Shown: piece after piece, positions 16,771 through 46,029 of the stretch | Layout of the letters: each line of letters begins with the position of its first letter | How positions within the stretch are numbered: the first letter of the stretch is position 1 | Origin: Chiloscyllium plagiosum | Taxonomy: Eukaryota | Reading direction: 5' to 3' | DNA length: 64,000 nt | NCBI RefSeq assembly: GCF_004010195.1 | Contig: NC_057759.1 | Location: 4,928,657 to 4,992,656, forward strand | The notes under the pieces: generated by a model | Seen by the model: the letters and a program-made list of their open reading frames with translations, nothing else | What the model was told of the DNA's origin: nothing | Databases searched by the model: none | Program-made: the position numbers and the translations under genes

Positions 16771-17007
16771 AGTTCGACCCCAGCTGTCCTTTGTCACAGG
16801 GATGGATTGAAGATTATCAATCATTGAATCATGTCTCATCAAAGCAAACATTTCCAGTAAATAAATCTGACAAATCGTGTTTCTGTAAATGGCAGCTTTA
16901 CCACATTTTAATTTAACTCTTGGCATGGAAAAGCAACATTATCAACTTTGTTTATTTTGTGTACATTACAAGTAAGGTGAAATCTAACTGTACAAATGAT
17001 GCATGTG

Positions 17008-17112
<105 letters not shown>

Positions 17113-17744
17113 CAGACATGATATTTGTTGGTTAAATTTCTAACATAATTTTTCACAATAGACTACAGTTCAATCAAAATGCCACCATTTCATTCACAGT
17201 GTAACTCCTGAGCTCTGGTTTAATATGCATGACTTCCTTTTTTACCTCCATTTACCTACCCATTTTTGAAAGAAAAATCAATTAAGTGAAAGGATTTGTT
17301 GTCGAATTTCATGCTGAGGATGCAATTATCCCCAGAGATGTTTAAAAGTTAGAAACGGGTTTAAAACGCAAATGTTAAATCTTAACACTTGCGGGAAAAT
17401 AATTCACTAATTAGACAACAACTGAATTGAAATGACGATCAAGTAATGCATTAAAATCCTACTGCATCTGACAATTCTTCCAACTAAATTTGTGTCAGAA
17501 CTCAGACACATATAAATTACTTTCCGAGTGACTTACACCGCTGTTTTAATGGAAGGCGAAATCAAGCTAATATTTGCATATAAGACCTCGTGTCAAGAAC
17601 GGAAGGGTGTGAATTCTTCTCAGAAAAGAAACATCCTGAAGTGAGCAGCCTCTCTGAGTTTCTCTCTTCCCACACACGCGCGTGCACGACGCTAACTAAC
17701 TCTGTAAGAATGTTTACGCTACTTCCTTTTTGCACCATCTTTTA

Positions 17745-18380
17745 GTAGCCACTGGAGTGGTTTTTTTTCCAAGATGTGTCAAAGTGGTGTTGTAATTGCA
17801 ATAAAGTTAGGACTGAAAACATGCACTGAAACAAAACTGTATTGCAGTTTCAGATGAGTGGAAATCAGTGTTTCTTGGAATATCATCTCACTCAGCAGTG
17901 TGCAATAGACAGAACTGTGCCTGGAAACTTTTCTTTATAAAATAAAAGTGGAGGATATCGTACAGCATTGGTTATACGTTATCCCTGACAGAGGGAACAT
18001 CTCAACATTTATGGAATATCCACGATTATTTGATGGTCTTGTTGCAATTGTCTCTTTCCTTCAGCTGAGAGAAGAAAAAAAGATTAAAATCCATCAGCAC
18101 AAGTTCCAGTGTTTACGCTCATGTGTGTTGCTGAGAAATAAAGAAGTTAGTTTTGTCTGACAGTGAGAATCAGCAGACACACACACACACATCAGCAATG
18201 CATACTGTCATAGCCCCTAGTGTTCACAACACGGAATCGCAGATTGTAGCAGTGCTATCGTATCATGCAGCAGTGAAAGATTCTTTTACGGCCAACAACA
18301 GTCAAAGAGGGAGTGATTCCATCAATCCCCCACCTTGGATTATGGTTCACTTCTTTCCTCTTTTGAATTTATCTACATCC
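17745..18380 (-). repeat. Inverted paralogous block, partner of 38921-39610
   Basis: Shared reverse-complement anchors: aatcactccctctttgactg, tgctgcatgata, cactgtcagacaaa, tatttctcagc, aaaagtttcca, ttgcacactgc, gagtgagatg. Confidence 0.85.
18009..18064 (-). CDS. Putative terminal coding exon of an unidentified gene (copy 1): xEGKRQLQQDHQIIVDIP*
   Basis: Strong acceptor tttttttcttctctcAG; paralogous to 39287-39342 with mostly third-position differences and the same stop position. Confidence 0.5.
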
Positions 18381-18615
18381 TGTTGCCCATTCATTAAATA
18401 ATCTATGTCCAATATCGGCTAGCAGATGGCATTAGGTTCTGGAAGTGATTGAGGCGGAGGATATGTACAGGGAAGAACAGGGAAATGGGGTTAGAGTGGG
18501 TGGACATTTTGATTGGCATGGACAGGTTTGCGCTGAATGGTCTGTCTCTGTGCTGTAGGATTTTATGACCTAAACGATCTTTCCATGTGAAGCAGCATTT
18601 CAACTGTACCTTTGT

Positions 18616-18928
18616 GGGCGGCACGGTGGCACAGTGGTTAGCACTGCTGCCTCGCAGCGCCAGAGACCCGGGTTCAATTCCCGACTCAGGCGACTGACTG
18701 TGTGGAGTTTGCACGTTCTCCCCGTGTCTGCGTGGGTTTCCTCCGGGGGCTCCGGTTTCCTCCCACAGTCCAAAGATGTGCAAGTCAGGTGAATTGGCCA
18801 TGCTAAATTGCCCGTAGTGTTAGGTAAAGGGGTAATTGTAGGGGTATGGGTGGGTTACGCTTCGGCGGGTCGGTGTGGACTTGTTGGGCCGAAGGGCCTG
18901 TTTCCACACTGTAAGTAATCTAATCTAA
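18616..18928 (+). mobile_element. Full-length HE1-type tRNA-derived V-SINE
   Basis: Head gggcggcacggtggcacagtggttagcactgctgcctc with A/B boxes (ggttcaattcc), V-domain, and a HER1-like tail ending taatctaatctaa. Confidence 0.95.
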
Positions 18929-19509
18929 ACTCCAATTTTATGCATTGAATTCAGCCCACCCAATGTGGCAAAGTCTAGATTGGCGAAACCAAACAGAGAC
19001 ATGGTGGCCACTATACGGAATATCTCTGGCGTGTGCACAAGCAGGACCCCAATCTTTCTGCAGCCAGTCATTTTCACACGGCATCCTTTTCTCATGCCCA
19101 TGTGTCTGTCCTCAGCATGATGCATTGTCCAGTAAATCACAGTGTAAACTGAAGGAACAACATTTCATCTTAAGACTAGGCACTTTGCAGCCGTTTGGAC
19201 TTAATATTGATCTCAACACCTTCAAATTGTGAACCCATTCCTTCCCTTTCTTTTAGATTGTTATATTATGTTATCGTGTCCACTCCCCCCCCACCCCCCC
19301 AACACACACACCTCCACAACAACCCCCGCCCATTCCAGTGGGGACTGTCTATCCTTTCAAGTCTGGCAGGAGTGTTATGAACCAGATTGGACTCGCTCAA
19401 AACATTTCAAAAACCAGCCCAGACCCTAACTTTGCTAATTGCTTTAAGCAGGTGTATTGTGGATATTCCAGGAGTGATTCTTCTGATCAAAGCACTTAGT
19501 TTTAAACTT

Positions 19510-21942
19510 AGTTCTAAATTGGAGAAAGGACAAGTTTGACCATATTAGGCAAGAACTTTCAAAAGATGATTGGGGGAAAATGTTTGCAAGTAAAGGGACG
19601 GCTGGAAAATGGGAAGCCTTCAGAAATGAGTTAACCAGAATCCAGAGAAAGTATGTTCCTGTTAGGGTGAAATGAAAGGCTGGTATATATAGGGAGTGCT
19701 GGATGACTAAAGAAATTGAGGATTTGGTTAAGAAAAAGAAGGAAGCATATGTCAGGTGTAGACAGGATAGATTGATTGAATCCTTAGAAGTGTATAAAGA
19801 CAGTAGGAGTATATTTAAGAGGGAAATCAGGAGGGCAAAAGCATTGGCAAATGGAATTAAGGCGAATCCAAAGTGTTTTTACAAATACATTAAGGACAAA
19901 ATGGTAACTAAGGAGAGAATAGGGCCTCTCAAAGATCAGCAAGGCAGCCTTTGTGTGAAACCACAGAAAATGGTGTAGATACTAAGCGAGTATTTTGCAT
20001 CAGTATTTACTGTGGAAAAAGACATGGAAGATGTAGAATGTAGGCAAATAGATGGTGACATCTTGAAAATATCCATATTACAGCGGAGGAAATGCTGGAT
20101 ATCTTGAAGCGGGTAAAGGTTGATAAATCCTCAGGACCTGATCAGGCGGACCTTAGTACTCTGTGGGAAGCTAGGGAAGTGATTGCTGGGCCGCTTTCTG
20201 AGATATTTACTATCAAAAGGCACAGGTGAGGTGCTGGAAGACTGGAGGTTGGCTAACATGGTGCCTCTGCTTAAGTAGGGAGCTATAGACCAGTAAGTCT
20301 GACATCGGTGGTGGGCAAATTGTTGGAGGGAATCCTGAGGGACAGGATGTACATGTATTTGGAGAGGAAAGGACTGAATACGGAAAGTAAATATGGTTTG
20401 TGCGTGGGAAACCATGTCTCAGAATCTTGATTGAGTTTTTTGAAGAAGTAACAAAGCGGATTGATGAGGGCAGAGCGGTAAATGTGATCTATGTGAACTT
20501 ACGTAAGGCGTTCAACAAGGTTCCCCATGGGAGACTGGAGAGCAAGGTTAGATCTCACGGAATAAATGGAGAACTAACCATTTAGATACAGATCTGGCTC
20601 AAAGGTAGTAGACAGAGGATGGTGGTGGAAGTTTGTTTTTCAGACTGGAGGCCTGTCACCAGTGAAATGCCACAAGGATCAATGCTGGGTCCACTACTTT
20701 TTGTCATTTGCATAAATGATTTGGATATCAGCAGAAGAGGTATAGTTAGTAGGTTTGCAGATAACACCAAAATTGGAGGTGTAGTGGACAGCGAAGAAGG
20801 GTTCCTCAGATTGCAACAGGATCTTGATCTGGTGGGCCACGGTCTGAGAAGTGGCAAGTGGAGTTTATAAATGCGAGGTACTGCATTTGGGGAAAGCAAA
20901 TCTTAGTAGGACTATTCACTTAATGGTAAGGTCTTAGGGAGTGTTGCTGAACAAAGAGACCTTGGGGTGCAGGTTCATAGCTCCTTGAAAGTGGACTCGC
21001 ATCTAGATAGAACAGTGAAGAAGGCATTTAGTATGCTTTCCTTTAGGATTAGATTGCTTACAGTGTGAAAACAGGTCCTTCGGCCCAACAAGTCCACACC
21101 GACCCACCGAAGCGCAACCCACCCATACATTTACCCACTCACCTAACACTACGGGCTACTTAACATAGCCACTTCACCTGACCTGCACATCTTTGGACTG
21201 TGGGAGGAAACCGGAACTCACGGAGGAAACCCACGCAGACACAGGTAGAATGTGCAAGCTCCACACAGTCTGTTACCAGAGGCGGGAATTGAGCCCAGGT
21301 CTTTGGCGCTGTGAGGCAGCAGTGCTAACCACTGTGCGACCTTGAATATGGAGTACAGGAGTTGGGAGGTCATGTTGTGGCTGTGCAGGACATTGGTTAG
21401 ACCACTGTTGGGATATTGCGTGCAATTATGGTCTCCTTCCTATCGGAAAGATGTTGTGAAACTTGAAATGACTCAGAAAAGATTTACAAGGATTGGAGGA
21501 TTTTAGCTATAGGGAGAGTTTGAACAGGCTGGGGCTGTTTTCCCTGGAGCGTCGAGGCTGAGGTGTAACCTTACAGAGGTATACAAAATTATGAGGGGCA
21601 TGGATAGGATAAATAGACAAAGTCTTTTCCCTGGGGTGGGGGAGTCCAGAACTAGAGGGCATAGGTTTAGGGTGATGGGGAAAGATATAAAAGAATCTGA
21701 TGGGGCAACTTTTTCACGAAATGCGTGGTACGTGTATGGAATGAGCTGCCAGAAGAAGTAGTGGAAGCTGGTACAATTGCAACATTTAAAAGGCATTTTG
21801 GATAGTTATATGAATAGGAAGTGTTTGGAGGGATATGGGCATGGTGCTGTCAGGTGGGACTAAATTTGGTTGGGATATCTGGTCAGGATGGACGGCTTGG
21901 ACGGAATAGTCTATTTGGTGCTGTACATCTCTATGACTCTAT
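19510..21942 (+). mobile_element. 5'-truncated HER1/CR1 LINE, interrupted by an HE1 SINE
   Basis: Highly similar to 30527-32710; RT motifs PQGSMLGPLLF and RFADN. Confidence 0.9.
21047..21340 (-). mobile_element. HE1-type SINE nested in a LINE
   Basis: Reverse complement of the HE1 sequence interrupting the LINE RT C-terminal region. Confidence 0.9.
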
Positions 21943-22879
21943 AAAACAGACTTCATTTACAAGATTATCAACTGAAACACAAGATTGTCCTAACTTAATG
22001 TTGCTGTTGCAAATTATTGTAACACTTTCCATAAAGATGCTTTGGCACAAAGGGTAAACTTAAACACAGGAGAGATGTCAGAGATTGGGAGAATCAGCAT
22101 GGACCTGCTTCCTCTGGTCCAGCAACTTTAGAATGGCTGTTTGCTAAAACTAAACCAAACCAGGCGAAACAGATCTTGGAGAACTGGCTACTCCACTTTC
22201 ATTGAACCAGTGACTTTTTAAAAATATTTTAGAACATGAAAGCCTTTTGTCTGAGGCAGTATCTGATAGCTGTATTCAAATTGGCCCTAAAACCCTTAAA
22301 ACCTAGACTTTTTTGAATCGCTACTTTTGCGATCTCTTTGAAAAATTGCAGGACAGCATCGTTACATGAGACATATCATTCCTGAGGAAGAGCTTATGCT
22401 CGAAACATTGACTGTCCTGCACCTTGGATGTCCAGCACCACACTTTTTTGACATACTATTATTCAGCCATTCTCACATTCCTTAATTCTCACACATCACT
22501 TAATATGAACTATCAACATCTTTTCTCCACTAACACTCTATGCCCAGTACCGCCACAGCCTCCTTTCCAAATACACGCACAAACACATACACAGCCACAA
22601 ACGTTCACACACAATCAATCACTCTGAAGTAGCCAGCACGAGGCCGTACCCCAAGTGGAAGAGAGGGATTTTAAAAGTTCTTTGAGAGCTGTGGAATGGT
22701 GAGTATGATATTTTTATTCTTTATGTCTATCTCCCTTGATCTGGATTTGCTTCTTTCTGTATATCCCTGTCCCTATCTCCAATTATCTGTCTTTCTCTCT
22801 GCTTCTCATCCCATTTGCGTCTCAGGCAGCCAGACTGATGGATTGATTATAGTTTCAAAATTTGAAAAAGAAACAAAGA

Positions 22880-23645
22880 TGCCTCGTAATCAGAAACAAA
22901 ATCCACGATTGCTGCAGAAACTCAGCAGGTCAGTCTACACCTTTGGAGAGAAAGCTGACTTAACGTTTGGGTCCAGTGACACTTCTTCTGACCATGGTAT
23001 GTGGGGACTGGAATAAGGACACAGGGAGAAGGTACTCAGGAGGTAACATGTTTGAACTTGATATTGAGTCCGGACAGCTGCATGGTCTCCAAACAGGAAG
23101 TGAGGTGCTGTTCTTTTACTTTGTGCTGTTCTTCCAGCTATTCTGATCTTCCAGCATGTACTGAGGTTCGCCGGAACACTGCAGCAAGACACTGAGATGG
23201 AATTGTTGTCCGTGTTAGAACACTTAGGTACTGAAATGGCAGGCAACTGGAAGCCTGGTCGTTTTTGCCGACAGAATGTATGTGTTAGTCCAATGTCCTT
23301 ACCTCAACCTCTCACTTCAAACCTTGTCATCACATGGGCTGCTAAGACACGACCCATTGTCAGCCACTGACAGTGCCCATGAGCAGCCATTCATTCTCCC
23401 AGGGGCTGACCTTCACTCACTCCTTTGTATGCCCAAGCATTTTTCTCTCTTTCTGGGCCCCCACTCCACCTATGATTCACTCCTTTCCCATTTACCCATC
23501 ACCCCCACCCAATACTTTTTGCGGCATATGTACCAGACATTTTCCTCAATACCATCACTTCTGACAAAGGGTCTCTGGACCAGAAACGATAACTTTGATT
23601 TCTCTCCACAGATGCTGCCTAACATGTTGAATTTTCCCAGTCATT
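22880..23645. mobile_element. Penelope-like fragments with terminal repeats in inverted orientation
   Basis: Terminal-repeat motifs at both ends in opposite orientation; endonuclease-end remnants inside. Confidence 0.6.
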
Positions 23646-24871
23646 TGTAACTATATTTTAAAAATTGATTTTCGTTTCAATCATTCATGGGATTTGGGCA
23701 TCTCCAGCTCGGCCAGGCAGGTTTTACTGACCATTATAAATTACCTGGAGGGGAGTTAAGCGTCATCCATATTGCTGTGAGTCTGGAGTCACATGTAGGC
23801 CACACCAGGTAAGAATGGCAGATTTCCTTCCCTGAAGGACATGAGTGAACCAGATAGGATTTTCGTACAATGATCGTCATTAAATTCTGAATTCCAGGTT
23901 TTACTTTAATTTAAGTTAAATCCTGCTGTCTGCCATGGTAGGATTTGATCTCAGATCATTATTTGCGTTCTAGATTAAATGCCAAGTGATAATGCTACTG
24001 GGACGTCGCCTCTCCTGCGAATATGTTAGGAGTCAATATTCAACTATGGCTGCCCATCAGGCATTCTCAAAGATTTAAGAATTTCACACAATACTCTAGT
24101 CATCAAAACATTCACTCGACTTCCTGAAAAAAGATCCTGAGAACCACAGGAAAGTAATTAAGTGATCATGAAGGAGATGACAAGGAAGAAACAGAATCCA
24201 ACAGGGGAAATGTGGCGCTGGGTTAATCTGTCCATCCAAACATTCTGTGATCTATCATGGTTTCAGTCACCAATCAGCGGAACTATGGCCCTTCGACCGG
24301 ACTTCTTATCGAGAAGTGACGGTCAGACTCAGAAATAAAACTTCACCTTTTTTTTGTGATTGCACTGAGCGTTTATGTTAAGTGTATTGAATATGATTGT
24401 AACCATTTATCGATGCAATGGTATAGAGTTAACGTTGCTGGGCTGGAACACCCAGGTTAATGGTCTGAGGCTGTGAATTGAAACCTCATTGTGGTAGATG
24501 GTAAAATTTGAACTCAGGGGCAAATCTGGAGTTACAAATCACTCAACAACCAGGTTATAGTCCAACAGATTTATTTGGAAGCACTAGCTTTAGAAGAACT
24601 GCTGCTTCGACAGGTGGTTGTGGAGTGAAAGATCGTAAGACACCGAATTTGTAGCAAATGTTTACAGTTTGTTGTAACTGAAATTATACATTGAAAAAGA
24701 CCTGGATTGTTTGTTAAGTCTCTCATCTTTCAGAATGACCATGTTGGTTTGAGTTCTTGTATATGTAAATCAGTGAACTTTTTTAAAGTTGCATTCTGAA
24801 GTGAACTTTAACAATAGGTGCCATGTCGGACCAGATAATGCATTGAAGGTACGAGGTGTCCTTCAATGATT

Positions 24872-24902
24872 CCTGAAGAAGGGCTCATGCCTGAAACGTC
24901 GA
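24872..24902 (+). ncRNA. Minimal hammerhead-ribozyme-like motif in a Penelope terminal repeat
   Basis: CTGAAGA-A-GGGC-TCAT-GCCT-GAAA-CGTC: CUGANGA box, stem II, GAAA box, palindromic ACGT and a GUC site. Confidence 0.55.
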
Positions 24903-26554
24903 TTCTCCTGCTCCTTGGATGCTGCCTGACCTGCTGCGCTTTTCCAGCAACACATTTTCAGCTCAGATTCCTCTGTGCCAAAGCACTCTGAACATTCTTA
25001 CCGTTGAGAGAATGTCGTCTTTTTAATCTTCCATCCTCATACTTACCCACATCAAACTGTCAAATAGTGACCCATTCACCATTCGCATCCTTCCTCAACT
25101 TAATTAAAATTGTACACCACAACAGCCATGTATGGCTGGTCACGTTCAGGTTCCAATTAAAGGTATCCCCCTACTTTGGATAATGGAATAATCAGCACTA
25201 GTAATACTCAGGGAATATCAAGGGTAAATGGTTAGATTGCCAAATATCAGACATAGTCTTTTTTTAAAATCCCTTAAGTAAATAATAGATCTCATGGATG
25301 CTGATGTAAAACTGCTTAGTTTGCATTACTTGTCCTCAAATTCCTGATGTGGATGGCTCCAGTTGTGAATTGCATTTGACCAGGCTGCTATCTTTAGTAA
25401 ACGCCTCAATTCCTGCTTTACTGCTGGCTGTACATTTACCCATTCACTAGGAGGTATATTCTCTGTTTCTACGGGGATAACACTTGAGAACGGAAGTGAG
25501 GAGGAACATCGTCAGCCTGAGCGAGGGGTGGGGGGGGGGGGGGGGGGTGAATCTGGGGAACTCATTGCTGCAGAGAGTTATGGAGACCAAGTCAGTGAGT
25601 GTATTTAAGACAGAAATAAAGAAATTTTCGATTGATCTGGGGATTAAGATTTATAAGGAATTGGCAGGAGAAAGGTTTCTCAAACCCAATCAGCTAGGAT
25701 TGAATGGCAGAGCAGAATCGATTATCTAAAAGGATTAATTCTACAACTATATCTAATGGACGGTCATTCTTATGGAAATTCATGTGACTCCTTCCCCAAA
25801 ATAACCAGCTCTACACTGGATTTGCTTATTTTCTGCTCATTTATTTGACTTTCATTTCAAGCCAATCCCTGTTCTATGATATAGTCACGGGACATTCTCT
25901 CGAGTGTGAACAGTTAAATGTATACAGGAACCTGGGCTCCATTCAGAAGATACTTTCACAATGTTAGCAGGATGCCCATAAGCTTACACTTCCCCATGCA
26001 TTCCATATGTATTATGGCAATTAATTGTTCTTTTGTTAACTTCCTGCAGGGGAACGCAAGGATCTAACAAAACGTACTGTTCACGTCTCCACAAAAGGAG
26101 TATAATGATCGAAGTGGGAATCAGTTCAATTGAAGTTTCTAATGTGTCTCCAGAAGATGGTTTACAGCGTGTGCTTTCTGGTAGTTGTTCCACACCAGTG
26201 CCATCTTTCATGCTGCTCCTTCCCTCTCTCTCATACACATTCAGGAAACTGCGAAGCTTCTCATCCAATGGTGAGAGAGGGCCTTCAGTCCATTGAATTT
26301 GTACTGCCAAGTACCGTTATAAATACAGCAGTACAACTTCACAGTCCATTGACTCGGATTATTAATGTCCTTCAGGGGAAGGATTTAATCTAGAGCACCC
26401 TAGCTGTGACTCCAAACTCAAACATTGCACGTTCATCCTAACTAGCCCTCTGGGCAATTTAGAATGGGCAAATTTGCAAGGAACATCAATCCATAAATAA
26501 TATTAGTTTTTATTTACATCAGGTAATTAGACAGGTTTAGCTAAGAATTACAAA

Positions 26555-27880
26555 AGAGAAAGTGGGGACGGCAGATTCTCGAAGTCAAAATCGAAAACAG
26601 TCGCACTTGTAAAACAGAGCAGGTCAGGCAGAATCCGAGGAGCAGGAGAATCGATTTTTCCAGCATAAGCCCTTCATCAAGGATGTGTTTGGGGGGAGGG
26701 GAAGAAGGGTGTTGAAAGACAAATAGTGGGATGGGAGTGGCGATAGTAGTTAGGTAGCTGGGAAGGTGATAGGAGGTGCAGGTGGAGGGCATGATGGTGA
26801 TAGGTTGTAAGGGAGGGTGGAGTATATAGGTGGTAAGGAAGAAAGATGGACGGGTAAGACAGTTTAAGACGTCGATGCCAAGTTGGATTGTTGGATCTGT
26901 GATAAGATGGGGAACATTAGGAAACTAGTGAATTAAATGTTGAGCCCCAATGATCGTCGGGTCCCAAAGCGGAAGATGAGGCGTTCTACCACCAGTCATC
27001 GTGTGGCTTGGATTTGGCGGTACAGGAGGCCAAGGATTTGCATGTCCTTGGTAGAGTGGGAGGAGGAGCTGGAGCAATCAGCCAGAGGTCGGTGGGGTTG
27101 TTTGGTGCGTGCTTCCCAGAGGTGTTCTGTAAAACTTCAAGCGACTTGAGGAGACCACATCGAGAACACCAGAGTAGATGAGGTGTGTGGAGCTCCAGGA
27201 AAGTATCTGCTGGATGTGGAAGGATCGTTTGGGGCGTAGGATGAAGGTGAGGGGGGAGTGCAGGCACAAGTTTTACAACTCTTGTGTTGATAAAGGAACT
27301 TGCCAGGTGGAAAGGTTGGGTTGATGAGGCGTGTAGACCTATCAAAGGAGTCATGGGGGGAATGGTCTCTTCGGATCCCAGGTAGGTGTGGGGAGTGAAT
27401 TCTATCTCTGGTAGTGGAGTCTGATTGTAAGTGGCAGAAATTGCGCTGTTACTAGGCCTTAATGGTGTGGAAGGTGAGGACAAGAAGATCTATCCTTGTT
27501 GTGGTTGGCGGGCAAATGTTCAAGGACTGAGGTGCGGGAAGGGGAGGAGATGCGCTGGAGGGCAATGTTGACCACATGGGGGTAATTGTGGTCCTTGACA
27601 TCGGAGGCTATCTGGGATGCCCTGAGGTGGAATTGATTCTCCTTGGAGCAGATAAGGTAGAGGTGGAGGAATTGGGATTAAGGGATACTGTTTTTACAGT
27701 GGGGTGTGTGGGAGGAGGTGTAGTCTCGGTAGCTGTGTGAGTCGGTGGGATTGAAGTCGATGTTTATTTTGAGTTGCTTGATGGACATGGAGACGGAGAG
27801 GTTTAGGCAGGGGAGGGAGGTGTCTGAGATAGTCCAGGTGAACTTGAGGTCAGGGAGGAGTGTGTTTGCGAAGCTGAAGA
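26555..27880 (-). mobile_element. Penelope-like element, degenerate RT C-terminus and GIY-YIG endonuclease region with terminal repeat
   Basis: Minus translations LKFTWTISDTSLPCLNLSVS...PTDSHSYRDYTSSHTPHCKNSIP and CSRCGLL; terminal repeat with tgatgaagggcttatgc motif. Confidence 0.8.
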
Positions 27881-29403
27881 GCCCTACACCTGCTCCTATG
27901 TCACTGTATCTGTGTTTCCTCAGATACAGTGACAAATGAAGAACTCTTGGCATAGCATTGTAGCAGAAACACTACCAGGCAGATCTACAGCAACTCCTCA
28001 ATAAGAGTGTGATTTAATGTGCTCTAAGCATGCTGTAATAGACAATTCAGCAGTAACATGTCCAGGTGCCAGTGAGAAGTATTTCTCTTTCTTCACTCAC
28101 GGGCAAAAGGCACTTTTCACTGCGTTTAACCTTTGCTCTGAAAAATGTCTGTGTTTTTCTTTCCTAACATGAGCGTGCTCTTGCGAAGGAGGCACGTGGA
28201 CACTGGGAGCTAACTTGTGGTTGAAGTGGATGAACCACGACGGAAATAGATGGAAATAGGGTTACAACAGTCACACGGAAACAGATGGGATTGGTTTTGG
28301 TGGACGTACATCCCTCCGCAGATTCCTGAGTCACAGAGCCAGAGAGCATGGAAACAGACCCTTCAGTCCAACTCATCCATGCTGGCCTGGTTTCCCCAAC
28401 TGAACTAACCCGTCTCCCATTAACTGTGAGAGTCCTGCTTTGGTTCATTTAACCAAAATGCAACACCTCACATTTATGTGATTTGAAATTCCATCTGCAA
28501 TTCCTCGGATGGTTGGCTTATTTTGTCGCAGTCTTCACTGTCCACCACGTTTCGAGTTACCTTGCAAGCTTCTTCAGCCAACGAGGATTAAAGCTTCCTT
28601 CTCAGCCAAATCCATGTTTGCTTTTGGTAGTTAGATGAGCTGAAACCACACGCACAGCGAAAATATACTGTAGTCAAGTAGTCAGGTTTCGTTTGACAGG
28701 GTTAATATTTATTTTTAGATCAATAAATGGTTTGTGTTATGTTTCGACCTGGAATCCAAAACCATGAAATACTTGAGGACAGTGTGTGTACCCATATGAT
28801 GGTTATGTTTCATTTCATGGATATTTCTGCTCTTTTTCTGTTGATGTTCTTTCGACAGAATGTACAGATCACCTCCTGCTATCCTGGCAACAGCTGCAAG
28901 GAGAGAAAAGAGCTGATGTTTCGAGTCTAACTGACCCTTTGTCAAAGATAAAAGAAGGGAGAAATGTGGAGGTATTTATACGAGGCTGAGGGAAGGTGAG
29001 TCATGGCTCCAGAAGCAAAGGTAGCAATAAAGAGGTGCACAGAGAGATTATAGGAAGATTAGGAACTGTGAATGACCAAGGCTGAAGCCAGTGCTATGTG
29101 ACAAAATATGTGAGGGATGGAGGGGATGGGTGAAGCAGAGGCAAAATGGAAAACAAGTGAATCAACATTGAATTCAACAACTTCAGATCATTATCATCTC
29201 GACCCCTCTGTTTTCATTCTGCTCCGTAATTTTATTTCATTTATTTTATTTATCATTTTAAAATATTTTTTTCACTGTTCTGTACCTTTTATTTCTTGAT
29301 TGTCTCTCTTTGTCTCGCTCCCCTCTCTCTCATCACCTTTTTCCTCTCTTCTTCCCCCTTTGCTATCCTTCTCCCCTGTTTTCCATTTTGCCTCTGCTTC
29401 ATC

Positions 29404-32400
29404 CATGTGGGAGTGGGGCCAGCAAGAGGTGATTGCCACACATTGGAACCAATGATATCGGAAGGAAAATGTTGAGATTCTGAAGGGAGATTACAGAGTG
29501 TTAGGCACAGATTTTAAAAGGAGGTTCTCAAGGAGAGTAATATCTAATGACGGCAGGAATTAGGAGGATAGAGCAGATGAATGCATGGTTGAGGAGCTGG
29601 CATATGGATCATTGGAATCTTTTTTGGGGGTAGAAGTGACCTGTACAATAAGGACGGATTGCACCTAAATTGGAAGGGGACTAATATACTGGAAGAGAAA
29701 TTTGCTAGAACTGCTCGGGACGATTTAAACTAATAAGGTGGTAGGGGAAGCCTCACTGTGAGGAAAGAGATCAAATCTGAGACTGGTACAGTTGAGAACA
29801 GAAGCGAGTCAAATAGTCAGGGCAAGCAGGGACAAGGTAGGACTAGTAACTTAAACTGCATTTATTTCAATGCAAGGGGCCAAACAGGGAAGGCAGATGA
29901 ACTCAGGGCACAGTTAGGAACATGGGACTGTGATATCATAGCAATTACAGAAACATGGTTCAGGGATGGGCAGGGCTGGCAGCTTAATGTTCCAGGATAT
30001 AACTGTTACAGGAAGGATAGAAAGGGAGGCAAGAGAGGAGGGGGAGTGACATTTTTGATAAGAGATACCATTACAGCTGTGCCAAGGGAGGACATTCCCG
30101 GAAATACATCCAGTGAAGTTATTTGGGTGGAACTAAGCAATAAGAAAGGGATGATCACCTTATTGGTATTGTATTATAGGTCCCCTAATAGCCAGAGGGA
30201 AATTGAGAAACAAACTTGTAAGGAGATCTCAGCGAACTGTCAGAATAATAGAGGGGGTATGGTAGGGGATTTTAACTTTCCAAACATAGACTGCCATAGT
30301 GTTACGGGTTTAGATGGAGAGGAATTTTTTAAATGCATACAAGACAATTTTCTGATTCAGTATGTAGATGTACATACGAGAGAAGGTGCAAAACTTGACC
30401 TACTCTTGGGAAATAAGGTAGGGCAGGTGACTAAGATGTCAGTGAGGGAACACTTTGGCGCCAGCGACCATAATTCTATTAGTTTTAATATAGTGATGGA
30501 AAAGGATAGACCAGATCTAAAAGCTAAAGTTCTAAATTGGAGAAAGGTCAATTTTGACGGTATTACACAAGAAATTTCGAAAGCTGATTGGAGGCAGATG
30601 TTTGCAGGTAAAGGGACGGCTGGAAAACGGGAAGCCGTCAGAAATGAGATAACGAGAATCCAGAAAAAGTTTTTTCCTGTCAGGGCGAAAGAAAAGGCTG
30701 GTAGGTATAGGGAATGCTGTTTGACTAAAGAAATTGAGGGTTTGGTTAAGAAAAAGAAGGAAGCATATGTAAGGTATGGACCGGATAGATCGAGTGGATC
30801 CTTAGAAGAGTATAAGGGAAGTAGGAGTATACTTAAGAGGGAAATCAGGAAGACAAAAAGCGGACATGAGATAGCTTTGCAAATATAATTAAGGAGACTC
30901 CAAGGAGTTTTTACAAATACATTAAGGACAAAATGGTAACTAGGGAGATCAGCAAGGCGGACTTTGTGTGGAGCCACAGAAAATGGGGGAGATACTAAAT
31001 GAGTATTTTGTATCAGTATTTACTGTGGAAATGGATATGGAAGATATAGACTGTAGGGAAATAGATGGTGACACCTTGCAAAATGACCATATTACAGAGG
31101 AGGAAGTACTGGATATCTTGAAATGTGTAAAGGTGGATAAATCACAGAAACTGATCAGGTGTGCCTGAGAACTCCGTGGGAAGCTAGAGAAGTGATTGCT
31201 GGGCCTCTTACTGAGATATTTGTATCATCGATAGTCACAGGTGAGGTGCCGGAAGACCGGAGGTTGGCAAACGTATGCCACTGTTTGAAAAGGGCGTTAA
31301 AGCCAAGCCGGGGAATTATAGACCAGTGGGCCTGACCTCGGTGGTGGGCAAGTTGTTGGAGGGAATCCTGAGGGACAGGATGTACATGTATTTGGAAAGG
31401 CAAAGACAGAATACGGATAGTCAACATAGCTTTTTGCGTGGGAAATCATGTCTCAGAAGCTTGATTGAGTTTTTTGAAGAGTTAACAAAAAGGATTGATG
31501 ATGGCAGAACAGTAGATGCGATCTATATGGACTTTAGTAAGGCGTTCAATAAAGTTCCCATGGGAGACTGATTAGCAAGGTTAAATCTCATGGATACAGG
31601 GAGAACTAGCCATTTGGATAGAGAACTGGCTCAAAGGTAGAAGGCAGAGAGTGGTGGTGGAGGGTTGTTTTTCAGACTGGAGGCCTGTGACCAGTGGAGT
31701 GCCACAAGGATCGATGCTGGGTCATTTACTTTTTGTCATTTACCTAAATGATTTGGATGCGAGCATAAGAGGTACAGTTAGTAAGTTTGCAGATGACCCC
31801 AAAATTGGAGAAGTAGTGGACAGCGAAGAGAGTTACCTCATATTACAACAGGATCTTGACCAGATGGGCCAATGGGCTGAAAAGTGGCAGATGGAGTTTA
31901 ATTCAGATAAATGCGAGGTGCTGCATTTTGGGAAAGCAAATCTTAGTTGGACTTATACACTTAATTGTATGGTCCTAGTGAGTGTTGTGGAACAAAGAGA
32001 CCTTGGAGTGCAGGTTCGTAGCTCCTTGAAAGTGGAGTCGCAGGTAGATAGGGATAGTGAAGAAGGCATTTGGTATGCTTTCCTTTATTGATCAGAGCAT
32101 TGAGTACAGGAGTTGGGAGGTCATGTTGCGGCTATACAGGACATTGGACAGGCCACTGTTGAAATATTGCATGCAGTTCTGGTCTCCTTCCTATTGGAAA
32201 GATGTTGTGAAACTTGCAAGGGTTAAGAAAAGATTTACAAGGATGTCGCCAGGCTTGGAGGATTTGAGCTATAGGGAGAGACCTAACAGACTGGGGTTGT
32301 TTTCCCTGAAGCATCGGAGGCTGAGGGGTGACCTTATAGAGGTTTATAAAATCATGAGGCGCATGAATAGGATAAATAGACAAAGTCAGTTCCCTGGGGT

Positions 32401-32710
32401 GGGAGAGTCCAGATCGAGAGGGCATAGGTTTAGTGTGAGAGGAGAAAGATATAAAAGAGACCTAAGGGGCAACGTTTTCACTTAGAGGATGGTACGTGTA
32501 TGGAATGAGCTGCCAGCTGTGGTGGAAGCTCGTACAATTGCAACATTTAAAAGGCATTTGGATGGGTACATGAATAGGAAGGGTTTGGAGGGATGTGGGC
32601 AGGGTGCTGGCAGGTGCGACTAGATTGGGTTGGGATATCTGGTCGGCATGGACGGGTTGGACCGAAGGGTCTGTTTCCATGCTGTACATCTCTATAGCTC
32701 TATGACTCTA
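29404..32710 (+). mobile_element. Near full-length HER1/CR1-clade LINE, degenerate
   Basis: ORF1 esterase-like remnants (HIGTNDI, DGLHLNWKGT). ORF2 APE endonuclease (CIYFNARG, IAITETW, GDFNFP, SDHN) and RT (YMDFSKAFNKVP, GVPQGS, KFADD), broken by frameshifts. The 3' tail resembles the HE1 tail. Confidence 0.95.
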
Positions 32711-33464
32711 ACTGAGTGGAGAGAGGCGTCAAATAGTTTCGGTTGTAAATGGAAGCTGTGAGTATGGATTAGGTAATTGGAATAGACCTAATGTTATATT
32801 TAATTGCATGGAATGTTGACAGGAGAATGTATTTTATTTGTGCAAGGTATTGAAGGGTGCGAGAAATGAGGAAGATATTAAGCGGTGGTAGGGGTGGAAT
32901 TACATGTTTGAAAATTAAAGTTTACAGGGACTGAGAGGGAGATTGGGATTAGACTGCTTGGGATTGCATATGATCTGGAGATTGTGACGGCAAAGTGGGA
33001 TTAGGGTTGTCTATTGGATTTACCTATTCCCTTTTCCCCTCTCATAAACAGCCACATTCACTGATGTTCCCGACCTCTAACCTGAAGAGAGGTATTTGTT
33101 CTGAGAGGACTCTGGCTCTCATATTGACGAGAGGTGACATAGAGGCGGAATAATCCGAATTCATAAGGGTCCTCACCATCCATGGATCCAGACAAACCTT
33201 CCAGGTGCAGCAGTGATCTACCTGCACTTCGCTTATACTGTTATTTGCTGCTCACATTCAAGTTTTCTCCACTCTGGGGAAACGAAACACAGATTGGTCG
33301 ACTGTTTTGTGGAACACATACATTCTGTCCATAAAATTCATCTCAAGCTTCCAGTAGCGTTTTCCATCAAAACCCCACCATGTTCCATCCCGACGTACAT
33401 CTGAGTGGATTGCTGCAGTGCTACAGAGAAGCCCAAAGCAAGCTGGAAAAACAGCAGCTCACGG

Positions 33465-34330
33465 AGTCATACAGACAGACAACATGGAAACAGACTCTAT
33501 GGCCCTACCAGTCTATGCTGATTATAATCCCAATATAAACTTGTCGTAGCTGCCTGCTCCTGGCTCATAACCCTCCAAACCTGTTTTAGTCATGTATCCG
33601 TTGATACGTCTTCCAAACATTGTAACTGTATCCGCATCCAGCACTTTCTCAGGAAGTTCACTTCACATGTGAACCATTCTTTGTGTAAAGACGTGCTCCT
33701 CATTTTTTTTTATAAATCTCTCACGTCTCACCTTAAAAATGTGCTCCTTCGTCTTGAAATCCCCAATTCTAGGGACAAGACGCTGACCATTAACCCTATC
33801 AGTACCTGTCATGATTTTATAAATTTCTGTAAGGTCACCTCTCAACTTCCTATGTTCCAGTGAAAAACAATCACTGGACAAGCTTTCCATTCCTGGCAGC
33901 ATCCTTGCATAACTCTTCGGACCCCTCTTCAGCAAGTAATAAACTCCCTGTAACTTGGAATCCAGAACGGACACACTACCGTGGAAGAGGTCTCACCAAT
34001 GTTCTGTACAGCCTCAACACGTAGTGAGAAGTGATGTATGGAGTAAGAGGAGATAGGAGAAGAGCTAAATGAATATTTTTCGTCATATTCTCACTAAAAG
34101 AATAAAATGCTGTTGAGGAGAATACTGATATAAAAGCTACTAAACTCAAAGAGGTGAGAAATGATGGCAAGCGTGCTAAGGCCTTTTAAACCAGCATATG
34201 TATATGTGACACCAGCTTCGAAGAATTATGTACCTGTACTCCTAGGTCCCTCTGATCTTCAAAGCAACGGAAGGAACTACCATTAATTGTGTGAGTTCCA
34301 CACTTGTTTGCCATACCAAAACGTAATGCT
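33465..34330 (-). mobile_element. CR1 LINE 3' fragments
   Basis: Translations FSLEHRKLRGDLTEIYKIM and EDQRDLGVQVH. Confidence 0.75.
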
Positions 34331-34759
34331 TTTCTTGGAGATCCTGAACTTAATATCAAGTTTAATAATTTCCGATACATTTCCTTCCATGTCATTTACC
34401 CAGCCCCCACACGCCAGGACGGTCACGACATCAGATGCCTTCAGCACAGCCGACCCATTTTCAGTCACTGATTGCCCACACTATCAGCTTTTACTCTTCC
34501 AAAGGCTGACTATTTATTATGCCTTTGTCCTTTAGAAATATGCTCGCTGTTTCGGTTTTGTCACTGAGTTACTTGTCAGCCTTTCTCCCCTCCCCCTCCC
34601 ACTAGCAAACCAGACTTGCTGAGTACCTCCAGTTGGTGTTGCTCTTGTTTCAGAACTTAAAAATCTCCAGTTAGCAGTAGGATATTATTGGATTGTCTAT
34701 TCTGGAAAGATTAGTGTTGGAAGATCAATTCTCAAGGTTATATATCAGTGCATTGATAA

Positions 34760-35550
34760 AGTCTTTCTACGGGTATATCAGAAATAAAAGAATGACAAGA
34801 ATCAGATTAGCACCAATCAAGGATCGTAGTGAGAAGTGATGTATGGAGTAAGAGGAGATAGGAGAAGTGCTAAATGAATATTTTTTGTCATATTCTCACT
34901 AAAAAAATAAAATGCTCTTGAGGAGAATACTAATATAAAAGCTACTAAACTAGATGGGATCGAGGTTCACAAGGATGAGGTGTTAGCAATTCTGGAAAGT
35001 GTGAAAATAGAGAAATCCCTTGGGTCGGATAGGATTTGTCCTCGGATTCTCTGAGAAGCCAGGGAGGAGATTGACGAGCCTTTGGCTTAGATCTTTGTGT
35101 CGGCATTGTCTACAGGAATAGTGCCAGAAGACTGGAGCGTAGCAAATGTTATTTCCTTGTTAAAGAAGGGTAGTAGAGATAACCTCGGTAATTATAGACT
35201 AGTGAGCCTCACGTTGGTTGTAGGTAAAGTGTTGGAAGCGTTATAAGATGTAGGATTTATTATCATATAGTCAGGAATAAGTTAATTAGGGATAGTCAAC
35301 AAGGCTTTCTGAAGGGTAGGTCGTATCGCACAAACTTTATTGAGTTCTTTGAGAAGGTGACCAAAGAGTTGTGGTTGATGTGGTGGATATGGACTTCAGT
35401 AAGGCGTTTCATAAGGTTCTGCACGGTAGTCTATTGCACAAAGTACGGAGCCAGGGGATTGAAGGTGATTTAGTGGTTTGGATCAGAAATTGGCTTGCAG
35501 AAACAAGACTGAGGGTGTTTGTTGATGGCAAATGTTAATCTTAAGTTCCG
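34760..35550 (+). mobile_element. CR1 LINE RT fragment
   Basis: Translations PEDWSVANVISLLKKG, NYRLVSLT and DMDFSKAFHKV. Confidence 0.8.
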
Positions 35551-37146
35551 TTACTATCACCAGGAGAAAGTGAGGACTGCAGATGCTGGAGATCAGAGCT
35601 GAAAATGTGTTGCTGGAAAAGCGCAGCAGGTCAGGCAACATCCAAGGAGCAGGAGAATCGACGTTTCGGGCATGAGCCTGAAAGAAGGGCTCATGCCCGA
35701 AACGTCGATCTCCTATCACCAGGGACACAGCTTGAGGGGTTATAGATATATGACAGATGTCAGAGGTACTTTCTTTACTCAGAGAGTAGTGGGAACGCAG
35801 AATGCACTGCCTGCAGCAGTAGAAGACTCACCAACTTTAAGGACATTTACGTGGTCATTGGATAACACGTGGGTAAAAACAATGACTGCAGATGCTGGAA
35901 ACCAGATTCTGGATTAGTGGTGCTGGAGAGCACAACTGTTCAGGCAGCATCCAAGGAGCAGTAAAATCGACGTTTTGGGCAAAAGCCCTTCATCGAGAAT
36001 AGAATAGTGTAGGTTAGATGGACTTCAGATTGGTTTCACAGGTCGGCACAACATCAAGGTCTGAAGGGCCTCTACTGCTCTGTAGTGATCTATGTTCTAT
36101 GTTGTATACAGGTATTTATGGTCTCATGCGATGATTGCTTTCCTCTGTTTATTGGGGAGGGAGATAATCAAATCATCTGGTTCAGTTTCATCCTTTCAGT
36201 AAGGAAATCTGCTCTCCATACCTTGTATAATCTATCTATCCCTGAGGATTTGAAATTCTTATGAATTTCCTACTTTGCTCAGAGATTGCACACATCTGGA
36301 GCAAGTGGGGCTTGAACACACGCCTTCTGGATTATAGGTACGCATGCTACAATTGTGTCATTAGAGCGTGTCTTTAAATTTCATGCTCAACTACACATTT
36401 AGGGGTTGGATGGAAAGTATGGCTTAGCCAGTGACACACATACAACCCATGAGCGTATTTAATATATATGTATATATATATGTATATAATATATATATAT
36501 TAAAGGTTCATATGTGGTGCATAAACTAAATAGCATCGTTTTAAAATGGCTGCTGGAAATTAATTTCAAATAAATTTCCATCTACTCAAACACCAGCAAG
36601 TATCTGAATACTATTATCCCATTTTTTAATTCATAACTTCAGACACAGCTTGTCACAATATAGCATTCGTTGGTGAACTTACCATAAACTGGTTCATTTC
36701 AGAGAAAAAGGTTACTTTGGTCACGCAATGTGTCAACTGAACAAAATGACTAGAACTAGTTCTGGTAGTTAGAAGCGCTTAGGACATCAGAACAGTCTCA
36801 AGACTGCATGAGGAGTATCTTTGAGGGTGAGCGGAATTTCTTTGAAACACTTTGAAATATTTTCGCAAAAGGAAATTGGAGGGGCTAATTTCTGGATTAT
36901 TTCCAGAGAAAAATTACAGAAACTTAGAAAGTAAGAGCTGGAGGAGGCAACATGTCCCCTTAAGCCTGATCCACCATTCAGCAAGATCAAGGCTGATCAT
37001 TGACTTCAACACACTGCCGTCAATTCCCCTTCCCCTCTCAAACCCATCAGCGATATACCATGGTACCTTTAGACACAACAGTTACATTCATATCCTTCTT
37101 CAAAACACACAATGCTTTCCCCCCAGCTACTTTCTGAATTTTTTTT

Positions 37147-37430
37147 TAGATTACTGACAGTGTGGAAACAGGCCCTTCGGCCCAACAAGTCCGACCCGCC
37201 GAAGCGCAACCCACCCATTCCCCTACATTTACCCCTTTTACCTTACACTACGGGCAATTTTGCATGGCCAATTAACCTGACCTGCACATCTTTGGACTGT
37301 GGGAGGAAACCGGAGCAGACACAGAGAGAACGTGCAAACTCCACACAGTCAGTCGCCTGAGTCGGGAATTGAACCTGGGTCTCTGGCGCTGTGAAGCAGC
37401 AGTGCTAACCATTGTGCCACCGTGCCACCA
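37147..37430 (-). mobile_element. HE1-type SINE
   Basis: Reverse complement of 18616-18928. Confidence 0.9.
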
Positions 37431-38009
37431 ATGAAGTAGTGAATGCGACAAGGTCAACACTCTCTGTGCGAAGACATTTCTCCTCCTCTAAATTCTAAAA
37501 GTATAATCACTCCCTCGGTCATCGAGAATGTCTTTCCTGCATCCAACCTATTGCCCCTCTTAGAATTTTAAAATTTCTATGAGAAGCCGCCCTCTCCCTC
37601 GTTCTTCTTTGCTCCCGTGAATATAACCCATACTGGCTCAATCTTTCCTCATCTGTAAGTCCAAGCACTCCAGGAATTAGTATGGGAACCTTTTACTGCA
37701 CTCTCTTTGTCGTAACAACACCCTTATTTAGATGGATGTCAAAGCTATACATAATATTCATGGGTGACCAATGAAGCAAGACATGCTTGCTATGAAGGCA
37801 AGGATACAGTTTGCTTTCTTTCTTATCTGTTGCACCTGCAATGCATACTTTCAGTAACTTATATACAAGCCTGTTTTAACATTCCACTCTCTGCTCACAG
37901 CCAATCAGATAACAATCTGTTTTCCTATTTTTGCAGCCAGATTGCGCACCTGCTTTTGCTGTCAAATATATCCAGAATTTAAATACGATCTGTCAGCACG
38001 TACTTGACA

Positions 38010-38920
38010 CAAATTGTAGGAGGCGTAGATGGTAAGTTTGCAGATGACACCAAAAGTGAAGGTGTAATGGAAAACGAAGAAGATTACCTCAGAGTACAAT
38101 TAAATCTTGATCAGATGGGCCAATGGGCTAAGGAGTGGCAGATGGAGATTAATTTAGGTAAATGTGAAATGCTGCATTTTGGAAAGGCAAATCAGAGCAG
38201 GACTCATGCACTTATTGGTAAGTTCCTAGGGCGTGCTGCTGAACAAAGAGACATTGGTTCAGCGATCCTTGAATGTGGAGTCACAGATAGAATAGTGAAT
38301 AAGGGATTTGGTGTGCTTTCCTTTAGTGGTGGAGCATTGAGTATAGGAGTTCGAAGACCATGTTGCGGCTGTACAGGATATTAATTAGGCCACTTTTGGA
38401 ATATTGCGTGCGATTCCTGTCTCCCTCCTATCAGAAGGATTTTGTGAAACTTGTAAAGGTTCAGAAAAGATTTAAAAGCATGTTGCCAGAATTGAAGGAT
38501 ATAAGCAATAGTGAGAGCTTGGTTAGGCTGGGATTGTTTTCCCTAGAGCATTGGAGGCTGAGGGGTGACCTTATGGAGATTAGTAAAACCATGAGGGGCA
38601 TGGATAGAATAAATAAATAAGGTCTTTTCCCAGGCGTGGGGAGTCCAGACTAGAGGGCATAGATTTAGGTTGGGAGAGGAAAGATTTAAAAGGGATCTAA
38701 GGGATAGCATTTTCATAAAGTGGGTGATGCATTTATGGAATGATCTGCCAGAGCAAGTGGTGGAGGCTGGTACAATTACAGCATTTAAAAGGCATATGGA
38801 TGGGTGTATGAATAGGGAGGGTTTAGAGGGATATGGGCCAAGTGATGGCAAAGGGACTAGATTAGGTTAGGATATATGGTTGTCATGGGCGAGTTGGACT
38901 ACATGGTCTGTTTACATGCT
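38010..38920 (+). mobile_element. CR1/HER1 LINE 3' fragment
   Basis: KFADDTK and LEYCVRFLSP; HER1-type tail. Confidence 0.85.
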
Positions 38921-39610
38921 GGATGTGAATAATTTCAAGAAAGAAAAGAAAATCAAGCATGATGCTCGGTGCAGAATTGAGGAAATCACTCCCTCTTTGA
39001 CTGTATTGATTTAAACAAAACTGTCTTAGGCTCCAAATAACTCTTCCGTGCTGCATGATACTGCAGTGACGTTACAATCTATAATTCCACACTCGCTACA
39101 CTGGAAGTGGTGAGGTTGGGGAGGATGACAGTAACCATTGCCACTGTGTGTTTGTTTGTGTGTGTGTGTGTGCGTGTGTGTGTGGACTAATTTCCACTGT
39201 CAGACAAAGCTAATTTGTGTATTTCTCAGCGCTAAATGCCACCTCAAAGTTTGGAACTTGTGCCAGGGCATTTTTCTCCCTCTCAGCTGTAGGCAACAGG
39301 CAATGGCAACAGGATCATCACTTAATTGTGGGTATCCCATAGGTGTTGAGATGTTGCCACCAATGAGACATTCCTTCTGTCGAGAGTGACAAGTGTTGAA
39401 TGTTGCACAGTGTCCTCACACTTCTTAAAAAAAAGTTTCCATACACAGCTTTGCCTCTTGCACACTGCGGAGTGAGATGCAAGTCCAAGAAGCACTGATA
39501 TGTACCCATCTGTAAACAAATACGGTTTTAATTCTTTGTACATTTTCTTTTAATTTGTTGCAACTGCAACAGTGCTTTGATGCATCTTGTGAGAAAAAAA
39601 CTCTACTGTG
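38921..39610 (+). repeat. Inverted paralogous block, partner of 17745-18380
   Basis: Same anchors in collinear order, including a TG/CA microsatellite at the equivalent position. Confidence 0.85.
39287..39342 (+). CDS. Putative terminal coding exon of an unidentified gene (copy 2): xVGNRQWQQDHHLIVGIP*
   Basis: Acceptor tttttctccctctcAG; aligns without gaps to 18064-18009 (minus); ATTAAA at ~39621 downstream. Confidence 0.5.
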
Positions 39611-40151
39611 TTGGTGTGAGATTAAAACTGTAAAGAGAAGACAATGTCCAAACAAAGAAATTGTGTTCAAAGTTTGTCATATGATTTACACACTCTGTAT
39701 AGGAGAGGCGATTGGAGAAGCTGCGAGCTGCAAGACTGTTTCTTTCCTGGGAAGCATCCACACCTATTTGTCTTCTTGACAAGGGGTGTTAAGTGAAAAC
39801 TTATCTGGATTCTTCCATTCCACCAAAACAGCGTTGCAAACAACTCAGAAATTGATTTATCATGTATTTCAATTCTTACACAAATTCGATAGGAAGCAGT
39901 GTCAGATGGCATAGCCTTCAGTATATTGGTCGATTGGTATTTCAACAGTGTTGCTGTACTGAATTCATGGTTATCGAATTAATGCATTCTTTTACTTTTG
40001 TGGTTTGAACTTGCTTTTACGTCAATCTCACTGGCGGTATCTCCATTCTTGGCATTATATTCGGCAACATAATCCGTGCAATTAATAATTGAACTTTTAT
40101 TCTCCAATGGGTAGATATATGAAGATAAGGAAGCAGGTCATGCACATTAAA

Positions 40152-40304
40152 TTAGGGCTCAGGAATTAGTGCAATTTTGACAGATGTGCATTCCCTTGTG
40201 AAAAATGACGTGAGACATTTTAAGCAGCAAATGTCATATTTCACAAGGGAATGCACATCTGTCAAAATTGCACTATTTCATTAACACTAATTCCTGAGCC
40301 CTAA
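40152..40304. repeat. Long fold-back inverted repeat
   Basis: 43-bp stem with one mismatch (40167-40209/40233-40275), 23-nt loop, 14-nt bulge, and a further 15-bp perfect stem. Confidence 0.95.
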
Positions 40305-41505
40305 ACTCTGTTTAACCATCTATCCATTTTCAGAGGCGTTATTTCTCCAACTGAATTCCAACTTACTTGGAGTTTGCAAGTAATAAAATAAAAGTTGTCA
40401 TGCTACTTTTCCAGGCCAGAGTTAAATAAAAATACATTGAAGCTGTCAGTTATAGAAACGTTAACATGTCTGATATCTTCATTGGACATATTTGCTTCTA
40501 TGAGACTTCGCAAAATCAAGTCAAAGAGTTATCGAATCATGCAGTATGGAATCAGACCCTTTTATAGACTTAGAATCCTACAGCATGGAGACAGGCTCTT
40601 TCGTCCAAACTGGTCCATGCCAATCAAAATGTCATTCCATGCTCACCCTATTTCCCTGCACTTGACCCATATTCTTCTAATCTTTCCTCTTCACGTATTT
40701 GGCCAAATGCTTCTTTACATATTAATAATGTAACCACCTCAAACACTTCCACTGGTAGTTTAAGGCTCGAGGGGAACGAATGAAAAGAGACTGAGGGCAA
40801 CTTTTTTTTATTTTAGACAGAGGGTTACTAAACTAGAAAGAGTGCGCAAGAAGTTTACAAGGATATTGCCTGGACTCAATGGTCTGAGTTATAGCGAGAA
40901 GTTGGACAAGCTAGATATTTTTTTTTCTCTCAAGCTTAGAAGACTGAGGGGGGAATCTTCTCGGAGTGCATAAGATCATGAAAGGCATGGATAGGGTGAA
41001 TATACTCAGTGTTGCCCCCAGGGTTGGGGGATCGAGGACGAGAGGCCATCAGTTTATGGTTAGAGAGAAAGAGTAAAAAGGGAATCTTAGGGGGCAAGTA
41101 TTTTTATGCAGAAGCTAGTACGTGGTATGCATATGGAAGTTATTGAGGCAGGTCCACTAACAAGATTTAAAAGGCAAATGGATAAATACTCGGATAGGAA
41201 AAGGTTCGAAGAATATGAGCCAAGAGTAGGGAAAAGAGGTTTGCTTGGACAGGCATTTTGGTCGGCATGGACCAGTTTGTTCCAAAGGGCCTGCCTCAGT
41301 GCGGTAGATCTATTGATGATAAGAAAGGATGTCATGCACATTAAAGCCAGGCTCAGGAATTAGTGTTAATGAAATAGTGCAATTTTGACGGCTGTACACT
41401 CTCTTGTGAAAAATGACGTGAAACATTTTAAGCTGCAAATGTCATATCGATCTCTCTGTTGAAGGAATATGACACTTTTATCTTTGTCTAGTTTCTTTGC
41501 CCCGT

Positions 41506-45998: not shown

Positions 45999-46029
45999 AT
46001 GGAGATCTTTTCTGCTCTCCTACTGTTCG
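45999..46029 (+). pseudogene. S1 signal-peptide segment of gene B with inactivated donor
   Basis: ATG GAG ATC TTT TCT GCT CTC CTA CTG TTC G (31 nt, MEIFSALLLF) followed by TTAAGT instead of GTAAGT. Confidence 0.65.

Follow-up and report, generated by a model that had tools for sequence, protein, structure and literature searches.

Between two divergently transcribed Fc-receptor-like genes of Chiloscyllium plagiosum lies a pair of inverted, related blocks, each carrying a short reading frame behind a strong splice acceptor. The question raised by this locus is whether the frames are coding exons and, if so, to what gene they belonged. The window analysed here is a stretch of 64,000 nucleotides of contig NC_057759.1, within which all coordinates are given.

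Anatomy of the duplicated block

Self-comparison placed the inverted collinear paralogy at 16833-18380 on the minus strand (copy 1) and 38921-40506 on the plus strand (copy 2). The pair at 17745-18380 (minus) and 38921-39610 (plus), which the original prediction had described as collinear inverted paralogues, was thus reproduced by alignment, with a match that extends further in the 3′ direction than claimed. Within the block 992 of 1486 aligned bases are identical (66.8%), and whole-block divergence is approximately 0.44 substitutions per site. The homology ends at transposon insertions on either side, and only repeat-type matches occur in the unique flanks beyond. A third, partial copy of the UTR is located at 41303-41457 on the plus strand (79% identical to copy 2 and 73% to copy 1), so that the window contains two copies of the block and one fragment. 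The repeat at 11958-12436 and 41512-42428 was considered as part of the duplication and rejected; it reads as a retroelement end beside a reverse-transcriptase-like relic, a reading based on sequence motifs, Pfam giving no match. For 38858-39430, a 603-base contig agrees with 0 substitutions. A literature search found nothing describing this locus.

Copy 1 comprises an intron tail, a last coding exon and a UTR-like tail, and the same order is observed in copy 2. A strong acceptor followed by 56 gap-free nucleotides had been reported for both copies and was found again, with acceptors at 18064 (minus) and 39287 (plus). When scored with a weight matrix built from general splice-site frequencies, these acceptors ranked 7th (copy 1) and 59th (copy 2) among the 8779 AGs of the window, and the exon acceptor was the first of the 76 aligned AGs common to both copies. 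A second in-frame acceptor is located 6 nt downstream in each copy (18058 and 39293), and a weaker one, also in frame, lies 57-66 nt upstream (18130 and 39230). The intron tails, at 18065-18380 (minus) and 38921-39286 (plus), share a TG repeat, one TGCATG and a branch-point-like hexamer; this intron of approximately 300 nt per copy is 70% identical and includes a 21-nt invariant stretch. The coding parts that follow, 18009-18064 (minus) and 39287-39342 (plus), are both in phase 1 and consist of 17 codons plus a TAA stop in copy 1 and a TAG stop in copy 2. No donor with a score of 4 or more was found at corresponding positions of the two copies.

Downstream of the stop, a UTR-like stretch that is 65% identical leads to AATAAA after 1058 nt in copy 1 (16951-16956, minus) and 1050 nt in copy 2, where an overlapping AATAAA pair at 40382-40392 (plus) is aligned with the copy 1 signal. 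A second aligned hexamer is present approximately 40 nt past the first in both copies, as ATTAAA at 16912 (minus) and as a further AATAAA at 40425 (plus). Two insertions distinguish the tails, an (AGAT)27 microsatellite at 17009-17116 in the copy 1 UTR, which is absent from copy 2, and a foldback duplication with a near-perfect stem of approximately 60 bp at 40150-40304 (plus), which is restricted to the copy 2 UTR and has a folding energy of -96.5 kcal/mol (z -17). Both were gained after the duplication. No Rfam match was obtained in the window. As read from the sequence, an acceptor, a short frame, a stop, a UTR-like tail and AATAAA are together laid out like a last exon followed by its 3′ UTR. 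The proposal of a terminal exon under apparent purifying selection is supported, and the UTR-like tail of 1.05 kb, with its aligned poly(A) signals, strengthens it.

Codon changes, copy number and competing frames

The peptides previously given for the two frames, xEGKRQLQQDHQIIVDIP in copy 1 and xVGNRQWQQDHHLIVGIP in copy 2, were retranslated identically. The counts on which selection had been proposed were likewise reproduced, with 13 differences in 56 nt, nine of them at third codon positions (three at second and one at first), and seven synonymous changes, including the TAA/TAG exchange, against six non-synonymous ones. The binomial probability with p = 1/3, given earlier as approximately 0.009, was recomputed as 0.0088, and a permutation over all three position classes gave p = 0.0084. 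In a simulation of neutral change that used the transition bias of the block, seven or more synonymous changes arose with P = 0.0013, or P = 0.0009 when the frame was also required to be open. The Jukes-Cantor dN/dS is 0.21 (dN 0.17, dS 0.79), a value resting on 18 codons only, and a Fisher test of synonymous versus non-synonymous changes with rounded site counts gave p = 0.014. Among 626 gap-free combinations of 54-nt window and strand in the block, the exon window has the highest synonymous count; synonymous changes exceed non-synonymous ones in five of the 626, of which three overlap the exon and two lie at 17941-17942. With only 18 codons and a choice of 626 windows, correction leaves the codon signal by itself borderline. 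Its weight is increased by where it falls, namely behind the best shared acceptor and up to a shared stop, with aligned poly(A) hexamers downstream. Taken together, the pattern of substitutions supports past purifying selection on the exon between the copies.

An improbable alternative treats the block as a duplicate without coding function, or as an old mobile element of low copy number, in which the best window looks coding by chance. Exon identity, 43 of 56 (77%), is indeed only slightly above that of the intron (214 of 307) and the UTR (650 of 1006), and the number of windows examined and the partial third copy point in the same direction; against it stands the coincidence of the codon signal with the shared splice, stop and poly(A) signals. 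Copy number also bears on this alternative. In DNA run X1, copy 2 has depths of 29.1 and 8.8 at 95% likeness, comparable with the 15-28 of unique bins and unlike the repeat bins, where depth reaches up to 2 million. The DNA depth of copy 2 is single-copy-like, and a young transposon is therefore excluded. The original prediction that the block is not a transposable element thus stands for young families, old diverged low-copy families lying outside this depth test. The ends of the block have no terminal repeats in common, inverted or direct, and no long open frame of transposase or reverse-transcriptase type follows the acceptors. An invertible cassette of the RAG type was considered separately and rejected: only five near-matches to recombination signals (at most three mismatches) were obtained, none with a partner at copy 2, four of the five being in or beside SINE copies and one in the copy 1 UTR.

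Two other readings of the frame itself were weighed. It is very unlikely that the functional frame lies on the opposite strand, where a small ORF is common to both copies (49 and 46 codons), with ATG and stop aligned, a frame-keeping 9-nt indel, a Ser-Phe-Val end and a fair acceptor on the same strand. Codon changes in this ORF comprise seven synonymous and 21 non-synonymous ones, most of them at second positions, and neither peptide was found in the protein collection, for which reasons it was rejected. Even slighter is the chance that the exon ends a secreted prohormone, a suggestion raised by the Gly-Lys-Arg of copy 1 as an amidation and cleavage site. Copy 2 has GNR in its place, the site falls at the first codons of the exon, and use of the conserved in-frame acceptor at 18058 or 39293 would change those very residues; moreover, no signal-peptide exon is linked to either copy and no database match was obtained. 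The suggestion is unsupported.

Neighbouring receptors and the search for upstream exons

Both copies are flanked by receptor genes. Gene A, on the minus strand, starts at 7125 with a signal-peptide exon (7095-7125), followed by exon 2 at 5604-5633 and a first Ig exon at 1029-1274, which is 100% identical to C. plagiosum RefSeq proteins. It is annotated in RefSeq as 'PECAM-like' (XP_043539691.1), within a set of such C. plagiosum proteins at XP_043539685-96, while relatives in C. punctatum are named 'Fc receptor-like protein 5' (XP_072422996-98). Gene B, on the plus strand, has inferred leader exons at 45999-46029 and 51935-51964 and a frameshifted first Ig exon at 54436-54710. The order is A, copy 1, copy 2, B, with A and copy 1 pointing to the left and copy 2 and B to the right, such that each copy is situated upstream of a co-oriented receptor gene. 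As each last exon precedes the receptor gene, it cannot be the tail of that receptor. An identity as an Fc-receptor-like last exon was rejected in any case, since neither peptide contains tyrosine and the Ig exons lie downstream of the copies. Against 163 receptor-like proteins no match to the peptides was found, the best ungapped score being 33 at an internal position. Presumed resemblances to the last exons of SH2D1B, DAP10, lipocalin and ASC were considered and set aside.

The content of this cluster is still poorly described. A 2014 survey (PMC4016189) reported no Fc-receptor-like homologues in sharks. Bamboo-shark B cells are described as expressing fcrl3, fcrl5 and fcgr1a-like in a single-cell study (PMC11372145), in which, among the supplement rows listed, LOC122544513 'PECAM-like isoform X5' marks B cells. 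This locus may be gene A, an equation made by name, a name that a second LOC shares.

If the copies are ends of genes, the remaining exons should be sought upstream, in the interval between them. This interval spans 20.5 kb and is at least 42% repeat. Since an intron of approximately 300 nt still aligns between the copies, other exons of two whole genes should align too. At word size 6, no inverted non-repeat homology between the copies was found in the centre, where only repeat-type matches occurred. The Pfam cut-off was reached by none of 127 ORFs from the centre (four weak matches under it) and by none of 143 ORFs from the upstream strands of the arms (two weak matches under it); as a control, the Ig exon of gene A matches Ig_3 at E 1.7e-5, a match that likewise fails to reach it, and the set comprised ORFs with less than 30% repeat cover and a length from 42-45 aa upwards. 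A 21-nt 'mini-exon' at 28873-28893 was rejected, as it lies in SINE-like sequence with high repeat depth. An unpaired candidate exon is present at 26050-26270 (plus), which exits in phase 1 and has an open frame of 73 codons, an acceptor score of 11.7 and a donor score of 8.3; it has no Pfam or PDB support, and its best ESM Atlas score is 0.77, below the level of a lead. There are no recognisable upstream exons in the window, and exons below approximately 40 codons, or kept by one copy only, would escape these tests.

The gene could likewise not be named by protein search. With the frame of copy 2 as the query, 42 aa that begin with 24 intron-derived residues, 11 candidates were obtained and with the two-copy alignment 22, none of either at E ≤ 10; the proteins covered were of 75-2000 aa, none of which carries either peptide at that level, and a blank result here is weak evidence. 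In PDB there were no matches, in the ESM Atlas no usable match for the peptide, and in DNA pattern scans of metagenome contigs and viral contigs none.

It is nevertheless possible, with a probability we regard as clearly below even, that at least one of the copies still serves as the last exon of an unannotated gene, whose upstream exons are unrecognised because they are very short, diverged, located in the centre for one copy only (as at 26050-26270), or beyond the window. The signals, intact in both copies, the low dN/dS, the conserved intron motifs and the splice-site scores of the candidate exon would all be consistent with live genes. The centre, however, lacks a paralogous exon pair, the candidate exon lacks database support, and exons beyond the window would require last introns longer than 39 and 46 kb, inside which the Fc-receptor-like genes would lie in antisense orientation. 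RNA run X5 placed 2688 of 12,955,460 records on 21900-41500, of which 98% continue unlike the stretch; it has 0 reads on copy 2 (38904-40865) and no depth on 25824-26477, the region of the candidate exon. RNA run X6 has 0 of 8,328,510 records on 21900-41500, and in run X7 the first two bins of copy 2 have depths of 0.12 and 0. These values, obtained without a positive control, are no evidence of silence. A more specific form, in which the two exons terminate a live but unannotated gene pair peculiar to cartilaginous fish and absent from the searched protein collections, is considered unlikely; its front exons would be micro-exons or lie tens of kilobases away, in which case the genes would overlap and hold the B-cell Fc-receptor-like genes antisense in their last introns. 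Live copies would thus add unannotated genes to the shark set, next to receptors of the kind reported in bamboo-shark B cells (PMC11372145).

Possible orphaned gene ends and known counterparts

The reading to which we give about an even chance is that the copies are 3′ ends left orphaned when an old head-to-head pair of paralogues lost its shared middle. The parent gene would have been duplicated long ago, at the approximately 0.44 substitutions per non-coding site now separating the copies, and both copies were probably held under purifying selection for most of the time since. They would have come to lie head to head beside the two divergently transcribed receptor genes, each exon in life adding a 17-residue C-terminal tail to its protein. 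A single central loss, for example between LINE copies, may then have removed the promoters and upstream exons of both, and one such loss would account for the symmetry of the headless copies. For this, each of the two last introns must contain a breakpoint; neither a breakpoint nor a junction could be located in the window. A LINE copy with endonuclease and reverse-transcriptase domains is situated mid-interval at 29737-32703 (plus), 83% like 19510-21942, and is a candidate site of such a deletion or of an assembly collapse. A recent real deletion and an assembly collapse would look the same here. Neither copy has a damaged acceptor, frame, stop or poly(A) signal, so the loss was recent or there was none. 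Signs of decay or local rearrangement are observed nearby, namely the frameshifted gene B, the third UTR fragment and the foldback. If the orphaned-end reading is true, the copies mark the place of a gene pair that was lost or mis-assembled within a rapidly evolving cluster of shark immune receptors, which would be useful for curating the locus and would imply no new mechanism.

Among known systems, the shark Fc-receptor-like receptors adjoin the copies on the same strand as each of them and share the phase-1 exon boundary typical of Ig-domain genes; their C-termini, however, mostly end in a motif of the Tyr-x-Asn-x-Pro type, which both peptides lack. Pack-TIR-type transposons with a captured exon are alike in placing a stray exon at more than one site, but the copies differ from them in having no shared terminal inverted repeats, in their single-copy-like depth and in the selection on the exon between copies. 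The terminal exon and 3′ UTR of duplicated vertebrate genes show the same succession of elements, from the acceptor through a short frame and its stop to a long UTR with AATAAA; the duplicated last exon described here would operate like any other, its gene being missing or unannotated. In multigene clusters, truncated gene fragments are left behind by segmental duplication, deletion or inversion, and these resemble the copies in the co-duplication of an intron, in a repeat-rich immune-receptor cluster as the setting and in a frameshifted gene close by. The difference from known fragments is that here both copies are symmetrically without a visible front part, and the difference from recent human duplicons is that the duplication is old, at 67% identity. 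The copies are thus likely to represent not a novel type of element but gene ends left over from an old duplication of an ordinary sort.

Foldback and short frames within the paralogous copies

In the UTR-like tail of copy 2 of the inverted paralogous blocks, a near-perfect foldback of 60 bp is located at 40150-40304 (+), with a z of -17. Its right arm is 91% alike to the third fragment, a partial UTR copy, at 41350-41417, and about 14-16 nt common to this arm and the third fragment are absent from the left arm. The foldback is likely a template-switch duplication.

An antisense small ORF is common to both copies, at 18011-18160 (+) and 39200-39340 (-), with ATG and stop aligned and the end reading Ser-Phe-Val; non-synonymous changes predominate between the copies. 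Furthermore, a second short UTR stretch, 17941-17890 (-) and 39422-39473 (+), displays 5 synonymous and 4 non-synonymous changes with a common TGA. No usable acceptor was found for this stretch, and its pattern is probably due to chance.

Signals between the copies

The exon-like stretch at 26050-26270 (+) possesses both a good acceptor and a good donor. Three overlapping ORFs of at least 70 aa each occur here, and the ORF at 25984-26316 (-) overlaps the stretch; no homologue was found in Pfam, PDB or the ESM Atlas. In unique sequence at 22699-22826 (+), a strong donor is followed 127 nt on by a long pyrimidine tract and an acceptor, possibly representing a small intron of a transcript. At 33196-33677, a contig (depth 20) from X1, a DNA read run, differs from the window at 22 letters in 481, which suggests either that the locus has a second copy or that the contig comes from a diverged allele.

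Arms and Fc-receptor-like genes

Related retroelement-end-like sequences lie in both arms outside the copies, at 11958-14185 (-) and 41512-42428 (+), with matching orientations. The former includes a reverse-transcriptase-like relic at 13952-14185, for which a Pfam search gave no match.

Regarding the Fc-receptor-like gene B, the first Ig exon, 54436-54710 (+), is frameshifted, and in the presumed leader exon, 45999-46035 (+), no GT donor occurs where the phase would require one; the gene is either a pseudogene or affected by an assembly error. For gene A ('PECAM-like' in RefSeq), the N-termini of several RefSeq isoforms map to LINE-like sequence at 2949-3062 and 3464-3553 (-), and a signal peptide is present only in isoforms starting at 7125.
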